A DNA stretch of 64,000 nt. Origin: Longimicrobiales bacterium. GTDB lineage: Bacteria > Gemmatimonadota > Gemmatimonadetes > Longimicrobiales > Gaopeijiaceae. Shown here one piece after another: positions 42,001 to 45,000 of the stretch. The stretch lies in contig CAXXKM010000003.1 of NCBI GenBank assembly GCA_963664435.2, positions 1,216,001 through 1,280,000 on the forward strand, read 5' to 3'. Made by a program: the position numbers. Every line of letters starts with the position of its first letter. Position 1 is the stretch's first letter.

Positions 42001-45000
42001 TCCTTCGGCTGCTTTACGTTATCGAACATCCTCGAACGTTATCGGACAATAGGCGATTATCCGCGAGTTGACTCGTCTGCCAGCGACCCTTCACCGTTCG
42101 GGGATGGAGACGCTGGAACACTCGTTCAACGTGCCGATTAGGGCGCTCCTCGGGCGGGATGGAGAACCCGCGTCGCGCCTCCACTGGCGACGGGTGGCCG
42201 AACCCGAATCCGGCAACCCGTTGCCCCGTCGAGATGTGGGAAATGGCCTATTTCCCACTCGCTTGCGCGGCTTGCCGACACCGTGTTCGGGTTGATGTGC
42301 ATGGAGATCGTGACCAAACAGTTGGAGACCCCGCCGAGGAGCGTCCTCCGGTGTCGATTCGTTCCCCGTCCCAGCGGCTCCGCGAGCCGAGAAGGCTCGG
42401 AAGAGGGGGACCTGCGATGATCGCCCACCTGAAGGGACGGGAACAGGCGCTGGAACCCTTGGGCCTGACCGGCCGCCGGGCCGAATGGATCGCGCTGGCG
42501 AGCCTGCACGGCGGCGTGTTCACCCGCGCGCAGCTTTCGGACTGGCTCGGGGCCAGCCGCTTCAAGGTGCTCCGGCTCATTCAGGCCCTGACGGAGCGAA
42601 GGCTGGTGACCGAGGAGACGGTCGGAGGTCTCAAGGTCTGCCGGGTCTGCGCGCGCGGCATCTACCGGGCGCTCGCTGCCGAGGACATCCGCCACCGAAG
42701 GATTACCTCGACCGAGGTGGTCATTCGCCGCCTGCTCTCTTTCGACTACGTGATCGAGCATCCGGACCTGCCCTGGCTCCCGACCGAGTCGGAGAAGGTG
42801 GGTGCGTGCGAGGCGCTCGGCATCGACCGCTCGCTCATGCCCGTCCGGGTCTATCGGGGCGCGGTCGGCGGTGCGCGGCGCTACTTCCCGCGCGGGATGC
42901 CCGTGGCGCTGGACTCTTGCCGCGCCGTGTTCGTCCACGCCGATCCCGGCTACGACACCTCGACCGCGCTCCACTCGTGGCGGGACCGGCACCGGAGGCT
43001 CTGGGAGGCGCTTAGAGAGGACGGCTTGTCGGTCGAGGCCATCGGGGTCGCAGGCGGCCGGAGGGAACTCGTTCGAGCGCGGACGATCCTCGGGAACTGG
43101 ACCAATGCGGACACGGCCCAACGTTCCGTGCATCCGCCTGGGACCGTCGCCGCGGCCCGGCGCGAGGCCGCACGGGTCGAGAACGCCATCCGGGGCATGG
43201 ACGACGCGACGGTCGAGGAACTGGGCGGTCTCAACGGCTGCCTTCGCCGCCTCGTCGAGATGAGGGAACTGCTCCGTTCGGCCCGTCCCGAAGGCACGAT
43301 CGACGGCCATTCGGTATGGCGGTCGAGCCGTCTTTCCGGAGTCCGAATTTGAGTGCCGTTCGGGGGAGCCCGTTGCCGATCCGGAGGTGTGAAATCGACA
43401 TCGGGGTGCTTGTGCACGGAAATGCCGCTGTGTTGTGCGGAACGTGGGTTCCGCAAGTCTCCGGACGGCTTGGGGTTGGGCCACGGCCCGCGGATCGCCG
43501 GTGCCGATCCGGGTCTCCGGGCCGTGGACGGGAGCGACCCGGCCCTTCGGGATGCCTGGTGCGGCATCGGGGCGGTTCGGCATGTGCAGGCCCATGCCGC
43601 CCTCCCCGCCGGGTCGCTTGTCTCTTCCATTCTTGGAGATCCCTGCTTGATTTGCAGGTCCGGGTCACGGGGATGGCCCGGTGTGCTGGATGCCCGCAGA
43701 GGCGAGCGGAGCGAGCCGGAGCGGGCATCCAGCACAGACGGTGGTCGGGCCGTCGGGTCGCTGGCCGCAAGGGCCGTACGGGAGTTTGGTCGCCACCGTC
43801 TTTCCCACGTCCTGAATGGATACTTGAGCATCGAGGCTCGCACGACAAGCACAGGAGAAAGGGAAAGCACATGAGCACCAGCCGTCGCACCGTCGGGATC
43901 GACATCTCCAAGGACTGGCTCGACGCCTTCGCGGCGCCCGAGGGGAGAGCGTCCCGGTTCTCGAACGACAGGGCCGGCTTCCGGAAACTGATCGCTTGGA
44001 TCGGCTCCGGGATCGACCGGATCGCGTACGAACCCTCCGGAGCCTTCCACCGCGACCTCGAGGACACCCTCCTGAAGGCCGGACTCCCCATGTATGCGAT
44101 CAACCCCTTCCAAGTCCGGTCCTTCGCCCGGTCCCTCGGCCAGCGAGCCAAGACCGATGCCGTGGACGCCCGGATGCTGGCCATCATGGCGTCGGCCATC
44201 GAAGACCTACGCCCGGCGCAGGCGAAGTCCGAGGGGCAGCGCGACCTTGCCGAGCTCCAGCAGATCCGCGACGCGCTGCGCAAGGACCGGACCGCCACCT
44301 CCAACCGCGGCAGGCACTTGCGCACTCCCGTGGGCAAGCGGGTCACCAGGCAGAGGCTGAGGCAGATCGAGCGCCAGCTGAAGCTCATCGACGCAGAGAT
44401 CCGGCAACGGGTGGAGGAGGAGAAGGCGCTGGAGCGCCGGGCCGAGATCCTGACCTCGATCCCGGGCATCTCGGACATCACCGCCGCGGGACTGATCGTC
44501 CACTTGCCGGAGCTCGGCACCCTCACCGGCCCCCGCGCCGCCAGCCTCGCCGGACTGGCCCCGGTCACCCGGGAGTCCGGACACTGGAAGGGACGCAGCT
44601 TCATCCAGGGCGGCAGGCGCCGGGTGCGCCAGTTGCTGTACATGCCCGCAGTGGCTGCGGTCCAGCACAATCCCGACCTCGGGCGCAAGTACGAAGCGCT
44701 CGTGGCTCGGGGCAAGCCGCCCAAGGTCGCCCTGACGGCCGTGATGCGGAAGCTCCTCATCCTCGCCAACGCCCTGGTGCAGCAGGACCGCACTTGGACG
44801 GCGCACCCGCCGCGGGAATACTCCTGCCCGGCCTTCCCGACGCCCAGCCCGGCGGGGAGCGTTCACGGATGATCGAGCCGGGCAAGAACGGGCACCGCAA
44901 CGGAAGCATCGCGAGGGGCGCTGCGAGACACGTCGCTCCAAGAAAATCGGGCATCCGCTTGACATGGATACTCCCGTACCAACGATCCCTCCGGGAAGGG

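Follow-up and report, generated by a model that had tools for sequence, protein, structure and literature searches.

Described IS110 elements and transfer origins

The layout of IS621-like elements is described in the accessible part of PMC11208160, and the element studied here shares with IS621 and ISCro4 the domain order, the catalytic residues, a left-end bridge RNA with two loops and a CT core. IS110 elements aimed at attC, Tn21 repeats, REP sequences and IS3 genes are known, with one natural redirection (PMC11187229, sections available). To the extent covered by these sections, ISKpn4 and ISPst6 (attC), IS4321 and IS5075 (Tn21 terminal repeats) and ISEc21 (an IS3 transposase gene) are likewise guided by RNA onto a conserved part of a mobile element; they differ from the present lineage in that the targets found here are transfer origins, one recognisable and one putative. 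IS621 inserts into REP; the present lineage targets cis sites on integrative elements instead, and natural switches of target class are seen in it. ISMch6 represents the natural redirection in the text available; here, by contrast, switching was repeated, between unrelated sites and among elements 82-100% alike.

The integrative element IME_oriT of Streptococcus agalactiae integrates at the conserved nic of ICE oriTs (PMC5704250, in its accessible part). It does so with a tyrosine integrase whose specificity is set by protein, whereas an RNA guide sets the aim of the present IS. The same part of that paper reports that mobilizable plasmids with their own VirD4 carry a MobC relaxase. MOBC relaxases combine a winged helix with a restriction fold and have repeats 70-120 bp from nic (PMC12857230, available sections), the nic of CloDF13 is located in the accessible text of PMC5935869, and satellites with staphylococcal oriT mimics gather several subtypes (PMC8136818, sections available). 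No IS110 or IS1111 element aimed at an oriT, a nic or a relaxase appeared in the titles and abstract openings searched, among which few subscription papers were covered, and the oriT passages in the available text of the bridge-RNA preprints concern methods. Within this literature, IS110 elements on other mobile elements are known and natural IS110 guides on oriTs appear to be new.

An IS621-like IS110 element and its copies

The window, i.e. the whole stretch of 64,000 nucleotides that was analysed, contains an IS110 element of 1354 bp (43619..44972, + strand) flanked by CT cores at 43617-43618 and 44971-44972. Its recombinase (333 aa; 43871..44872, +) has the DEDD_Tnp_IS110 and Transposase_20 domains, scored above the NCBIfam IS110 cut-off (NF033542), aligned with the IS621 transposase (E = 1.3e-31) and has kept all of the IS110 catalytic D-E-D-D and S residues (D11, E54, D96, D99 and S236). 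Judged by these features, the element is an intact IS621-like IS110.

The five copies reported by the survey were all full-length and lay within a few bases of where it had placed them (C3 1259619-1260972, which is the window copy; C2 901458-902811; C2 851557-852910; C2 421352-422711; C3 10333-11688). Four of the five indeed sit at a CT core in the arms of an inverted repeat, with the left flank GGGTCG/CT (the slash separating flank and core) inside a cis site hereafter called site A, two copies per arm. Across the wider copy set described below, insertion took place without duplication beyond the core, and the CT core was present at 69 of 70 scorable right ends. The empty site, in which the 1354 bases are skipped and a single CT remains, was present in contigs from three of four public runs.

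By analogy with IS621, the element would leave as a circle, express its bridge RNA and recombine into a guided site. In such a circle, a TTGACA in the right end (44959..44964, +) would come to lie 17 bases from CATTCT in the left end, as a candidate junction promoter. No circle junction was found among 201 assembled genomes, which is unsurprising for a circle outside the chromosome. On C1, a sixth and truncated copy borders half of a sequence resembling site A (BLAST, 71%, E = 9e-8), at which the site-A profile barely scores.

Predicted bridge RNA and its guides

The left end of the element is noncoding and is predicted to specify a bridge RNA (43680..43870, +) with a 5' hairpin, a target-binding loop and a donor-binding loop; the fold had a z of -4.67, and none of 200 shuffled sequences folded equally well. 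The fold model agreed with the survey's placement of the guides, the left target guide GGGTCGCT (43755..43762, +) and the right target guide GTACGGGAG (43776..43784, +) sharing one internal loop and the left donor guide ATGGATAC (43816..43823, +) and the right donor guide GACAAG (43844..43849, +) a second. The equality of target guides and flanks that it had reported was also recovered: GGGTCGCT equals the left flank plus core, and GTACGGGAG is the reverse complement of the core plus right flank CTCCCGTAC at nine of nine positions. The left donor guide equals the right end of the element and was identical in 76 of 76 copies, and the right donor guide, complementary to the left end CTTGTC, was conserved in 66 of 76 copies and read AACAAG in the other 10.

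A noncoding left end with two predicted loops and guides that match target and donor is what characterises the IS621 group, here on the grounds of prediction and covariation; the RNA-level data, contigs of one metatranscriptome with a small share, were uninformative. These matches support the view that the bridge RNA would direct the element to site A, in both orientations.

Guide classes among related copies

Relatives were scored as 76 distinct copies with a readable left end, flank duplicates and fragments devoid of a left end being excluded, and originated, to judge by record titles, from Gemmatimonadota bins (Longimicrobiales, Palauibacter) and sponge metagenomes. Two guide classes, A and B, were carried by 74 of these 76 copies. 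Class A (GGGTCGC) comprised 22 copies from about 8 assemblies, of which 18 were in site A (split 8 and 10 between the two arms) and none in site B, the second target; among the remainder, three matched their guide outside site A and one was at a contig end. The survey's association of the GGGTCGC guide with a GGGTCG flank held for 21 of 21 scorable copies in this newly assembled set. The two G009 copies that it had found with a guide-matching flank outside an island repeat (L068, L069) were seen again, together with one from G005 (L054).

Class B (GCTGGC) was larger, with 52 copies from about 20 assemblies, of which 41 had the left flank CTGG and 38 lay in site B; one also scored for site A, and 15 had a mobC gene at most 300 bases away. 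The 14 class-B copies that gave no site-B score included some at contig ends or rearranged and several inside genes, and one copy (L109) combined a left flank of type B with a right flank of type A. The survey had assigned re-programmed guides mostly to matching other sequences; most of them instead point at a second, recognisable oriT of the ColE1 type (38 of the 52 class-B copies in site B). In both classes, the right guides changed along with the right flanks (shuffle p = 0.0008 for class A; 0 of 5000 shuffles for class B), at a significance that these values overstate because the copies are kin.

In an unrooted tree of 44 distinct transposase genes, the guide class switched at least four times and a single class-A clade was rejected (p-AU = 0.0001). 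Such switches could reflect mutation of the guides or a swap of left ends from one copy to another, and the latter would mimic independent re-programming on the tree. The lineage thereby offers a natural case of bridge RNAs repeatedly re-aimed between two functional targets.

A third guide class (ATCGTCGC / GTCTGAGAG) was found in two metagenome copies (L156, L157). Its target is a conserved noncoding stretch, CCCTACCCGTACCCCTCGG...GAGATCGTCG, located directly behind P4-like integrase genes, with eight matches in the genome. The fifth copy of this genome (L014) carries a B-type left guide, yet is located at ATCGTCG/CT/CTCAG, a site of this third kind. The third target may be a further origin or be related to an att site; like the other two, it is located on integrative elements.

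This distribution bears on an explanation that needs no link to conjugation, in which the lineage drifts among any conserved palindromes that have a CT core and many copies, oriTs being simply the most frequent kind in the genomes concerned. IS110 elements commonly use folded repeats, and a stem-loop in the target helps ISPpu10, according to the part of the literature on it that was available; off-site insertions into genes exist, and the third class is aimed at the stretch behind integrase genes. Such drift nevertheless appears improbable, given the concentration of all but two copies in two guide classes, the location of all three targets on integrative elements and the repeated switching between the same two targets. 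The explanation that we favour, and regard as likely, is an IS621-like IS110 lineage whose habitat is the transfer origins of integrative elements, guide A directing it to site A as a MOBC-like oriT and guide B to a ColE1-type nic. What the IS would gain is a conserved, multi-copy and noncoding target on DNA that moves between cells.

At the core of several class-B copies (L094, L101, L102, L110, L131), GCTT or GCTG is repeated in tandem, as though successive rounds of insertion and excision had made the site longer. In three copies from different genomes (L064, L097, L024), the left flank or part of the left end is replaced by the same foreign sequence, the end of another IS-like element, which terminates in a guide-like ATCGGCT.

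Site B and ColE1-type transfer origins

The site-B profile was built solely from DNA upstream of the mobC genes of this genome. CTGG/CT was located about 100-140 bases upstream of mobC, on the opposite strand, for 11 of the 12 mobC genes, and all 12 were followed by a PF03432 relaxase. These relaxases matched MbeA of ColE1 (29-34%, E down to 1e-27), and the mobC-relaxase modules as a whole were matched by ColE1 MbeA, MbeC and MbeB, with no match for MbeD. All 11 seeds of the profile contained CTGG/CT, and four contained exactly CTGGCTTA, which is said to hold the ColE1 nic in the accessible text of PMC5703827. In ColE1 itself, the motif TATACTGGCTTA is found upstream of mbeC, likewise on the opposite strand. 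The ColE1 cut falls between G and C.

By the position of its motif and its cognate MbeC- and MbeA-like proteins, site B is recognisable as the nic motif of a ColE1-type (MOBP5) oriT. It resembles ColE1 (MOBP5/HEN) in the order of CTGG/CT on the strand opposite mobC followed by MbeC, MbeA and MbeB homologues, and differs from it in being carried by integrative islands and in lacking wider DNA likeness to the ColE1 oriT, against which the site-B model gave no match beyond the short motif. The class-B guide would thus be aimed at the nic motif of ColE1-type (MOBP) oriTs upstream of mobC. Of the 21 copies of TA[T/G]GCTGGCT, 18 were in site B, and the insertions at site B had the same orientation in 38 of 38 cases. 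As the IS starts with CTTGT, CTGG/CTT is rebuilt at the left junction of these insertions.

Site A and the islands that carry it

Site A spans about 250 bp and was matched 33 times in the IS-free genome by an iterated profile. In the window, its left part (43396..43618, +), a candidate oriT, opens with a subtype-specific motif that is present three times; arm 1 follows, then a pair of inner hairpins, one of which holds the motif for a fourth time in its loop, and lastly arm 2 as far as the core. What remains of arm 2 lies in the right remainder (44973..45000, +), together with a small hairpin and GGAAGG, the ribosome-binding motif of the coupling-protein gene. Arm 1 (GACGGGAGCGACCCGG; 43527..43542, +) is a second target, on the minus strand, and is used by the sister copy on C2.

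Among 67 non-redundant sites, pairing of the arms held in 700 of 734 cells, 6 of 11 pairs were of more than one type, and the AG/CT pair that forms the IS core was invariant in all 67. The CT-core 11-mer with most site-A copies is GGGTCGCTCCC. Its 32 occurrences in the assembled sequence were as the survey had counted them; once the IS copies were removed there were 36, of which 24 rather than the proposed 20 lay in site A. Coverage by the cis sites, put at 8.9 kb in the survey, came to 6574 bp (0.15% of the genome) under the new site-A model. The 15-mer target of the window copy was found in 16 of 18 islands with a coupling protein, and in none of 27 ICEs or 25 other loci. Guide class A would recognise a near-invariant part of the inverted repeat, in either arm.

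Three ICE copies of site A (L252, L244, L245; genomes G005 and G010) show changes in both arms just past the core (CT-AGC, CT-CCA), which preserve the pairing but ruin the match to the right guide; they could be escape variants.

The window island extends over about 41900-48330, with bounds taken from its likeness to a sister island, and is smaller than the ICE type. It is composed, in order, of ORF310 (42417..43352, +), site A, a VirD4/TrwB-like coupling protein (45011..47032, +) and a tyrosine recombinase, the island integrase (47131..48294, +). ORF310 has an N-terminal winged helix and an alpha/beta domain and is a putative site-binding (relaxosome) protein. Among 70 distinct ORF310 loci, 18 were of the window-island type with their own VirD4 coupling protein, as expected of mobilizable MOBC members. 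In four complete ICEs, site A was located between ORF310 and the coupling protein within a P-type T4SS operon that ends with ArdC, p295 and an integrase. No other gap within the ICE3 transfer operon exceeded 60 bp, and satellites shared only this one out of the three gaps of at least 60 bp seen in ICE3. Many satellites consisted of an integrase and one or more A sites and nothing else. The small islands have site A alone, or together with ORF310 and a coupling protein of their own.

The survey had described the cis sites as carried by ICEs and satellite islands alike; all occupied A sites were in mobilizable or satellite islands, and none was in a complete ICE (0 of 4 here and 0 of 4 in G005; 0 of 28 ICE-type loci). 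The difference between ICE-type (0 of 28) and other loci (3 of 48) was not significant (Fisher p = 0.29).

Islands in head-to-head arrangement recurred (L176, L177, L181, L183, L186, L191, L214), with an integrase, ORF310 and site A pointing towards another copy of the site and of ORF310. Near-identical satellite islands occurred twice per genome (C3:68416-72388 and C2:129303-132321 in G000; L051 and L058 in G005), showing, on sequence grounds, recent movement or duplication.

Candidate functions of site A

Site A is probably an oriT, and most likely that of a MOBC-like system. The strongest evidence for this is the sister guide class, whose aim at a ColE1-type oriT strengthens the same reading of site A. 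The large inverted repeat and the specificity repeats of site A would fit a MOBC-like layout: MOBC systems such as CloDF13 and pAD1 have a large branched inverted repeat, subtype-specific repeats and their own coupling protein, as in the site-A islands, and the CloDF13 nic falls in an arm of a branched repeat resembling site A. The site-A model did not match the CloDF13 oriT, no known oriT matched site A, and the stretch CGTGGNCGGG, which resembles the CloDF13 nic, shows variation. No significant DNA or protein match was obtained to any known MOBC system. The system further differs from CloDF13 in showing no significant DNA or protein alignment with it and in having two winged-helix proteins (ORF310 and p295) rather than one relaxase. 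Matches to site B were located less than 3 kb from site A in 12 of 34 cases, against 3% by chance, as if satellites collected origins in the manner of staphylococcal oriT mimics.

The pairing of ORF310 with site A also invites a reading as the replication origin of excised islands, with ORF310 as a winged-helix initiator acting on four repeats and the IS still aimed at the site. ORF310 and site A behave as a unit, the site following the gene in 74 of 76 loci, head-to-head site pairs were common, and the recognition helix of ORF310 covaried with the loop motif (D/S-R-F/W with TGTGCA, HRHT mostly with TGTACA, HRRS with CGGACA) among loci that are kin and not independent. We consider this reading unlikely, since virB8 and the coupling-protein gene flank the pair within the transfer operon, ORF310 is fused behind ArdC (ArdcN + MPTase) in three relatives (P0262, P0270, P0323), many satellites carry several site-A subtypes next to site B with no ORF310, and the sister guide class targets a true oriT motif.

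A further alternative, which has only a slim chance of being correct, is that site A regulates the coupling-protein operon, as a cis-acting leader or as a small RNA, and is targeted by the IS simply for being a repeated hairpin that is conserved, in the way that IS621 targets REP. Compensatory changes are seen in the arms and in the inner hairpins, and a regulatory role is possible because the ribosome-binding motif at the end of site A belongs to the coupling-protein gene. This is opposed by the lack of any Rfam match in 42000-49000 at E values up to 1, by the better folding of the strand opposite the mRNA in 15 of 15 cases, and by the many copies, the majority, that have no coupling-protein gene downstream and occur in both orientations. 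In the same strand comparison, the G-T counts were 24 versus 11 over 13 pairs, but 9 versus 8 over the core 11.

Two other candidates were rejected. An att or attC role of site A is opposed by its position inside the ICE operon; a separate conserved motif was found behind integrase genes, some of them at tRNA genes. The island integrase was considered as a possible MpsA/TcpM-like relaxase and ruled out, as members of its 387-aa family are also found beside MOBP modules and end at tRNA genes.

Candidate relaxosome proteins

Under the preferred reading of site A as a MOBC-like oriT, ORF310 would bind the subtype-specific repeats, and p295, an ICE protein with a winged helix and a PD...E motif, would cut the site. 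The ORF310 family comprises 2259 representatives and has no Pfam model; its protein-atlas matches were all unnamed, and neither an invariant acidic residue nor a catalytic signature was found across 36 diverse relatives. Fold searches with ORF310 returned winged-helix matches and weak Foldseek rows for VC1899 and FokI, and those with p295 returned the winged helix only, plus unnamed phage proteins; the C-terminal domain was barely probed in either protein. Alignment of the two profiles was confined to the winged helix, and neither protein had a match among plasmids or in PHROGs.

The p295 protein was placed near Replic_Relax by language-model features (0.90; 20 of 30 matches), and H142, PD217-218, E236, Y242 and K250 were kept in 85 of 85 relatives. 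This likeness and the invariant H...PD...E...Y...K set fit the description of MOBC relaxases. At the level of Pfam, p295 itself had no match, PF13814 was matched by 1 of the 85 relatives (E = 0.012), by 0 of 5 divergent ones and by nothing in this genome, and the CloDF13 MobC, of which a fragment was compared, did not align with p295.

Other RNA-guided transposons also target mobile DNA, and the present lineage parallels them with a one-protein system. The aim may be explained by hitch-hiking on conjugative transfer or by disabling it. A more far-reaching reading, which we put forward tentatively and hold to be possible rather than probable, is that the lineage is an RNA-guided parasite of conjugation that toggles between unrelated oriT classes. 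Insertion exactly at the ColE1-type nic, in one orientation and with the junction motif rebuilt, would let the origin keep working and the IS enter the recipient first. The region where an oriT of a so far undescribed MOBC-like family is cut would be marked by the class-A guide, two proteins would make up the relaxosome of this family, and natural IS110 guides would serve as pointers to unknown oriTs of uncultured bacteria.

Site A likely represents a new oriT family, with a candidate relaxase and a specificity protein, in sponge-associated Gemmatimonadota. About 20 ORF-level predictions (from guide to target and from helix to repeat) are open to tests in E. coli, and a recombinase naturally tuned to ColE1-type nic motifs constitutes a lead for a tool.

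Neighbourhood of the island

Upstream of the island, the minus strand encodes a large protein with leucine-rich repeats, Ig-like domains and a peptidase M66 domain (36369-41342), and a comparable long gene lies beside the sister island on C2. An Ig-like GH113 protein is encoded further upstream (28571-30493, -) and is, like the M66 protein, typical of sponge symbionts. Downstream, a HipA-like kinase and a small gene upstream of it (51059-52562, +) form a probable toxin-antitoxin pair. Elsewhere, G000 carries an array of 17 tRNA genes within 2.8 kb (C2:689401-692178).
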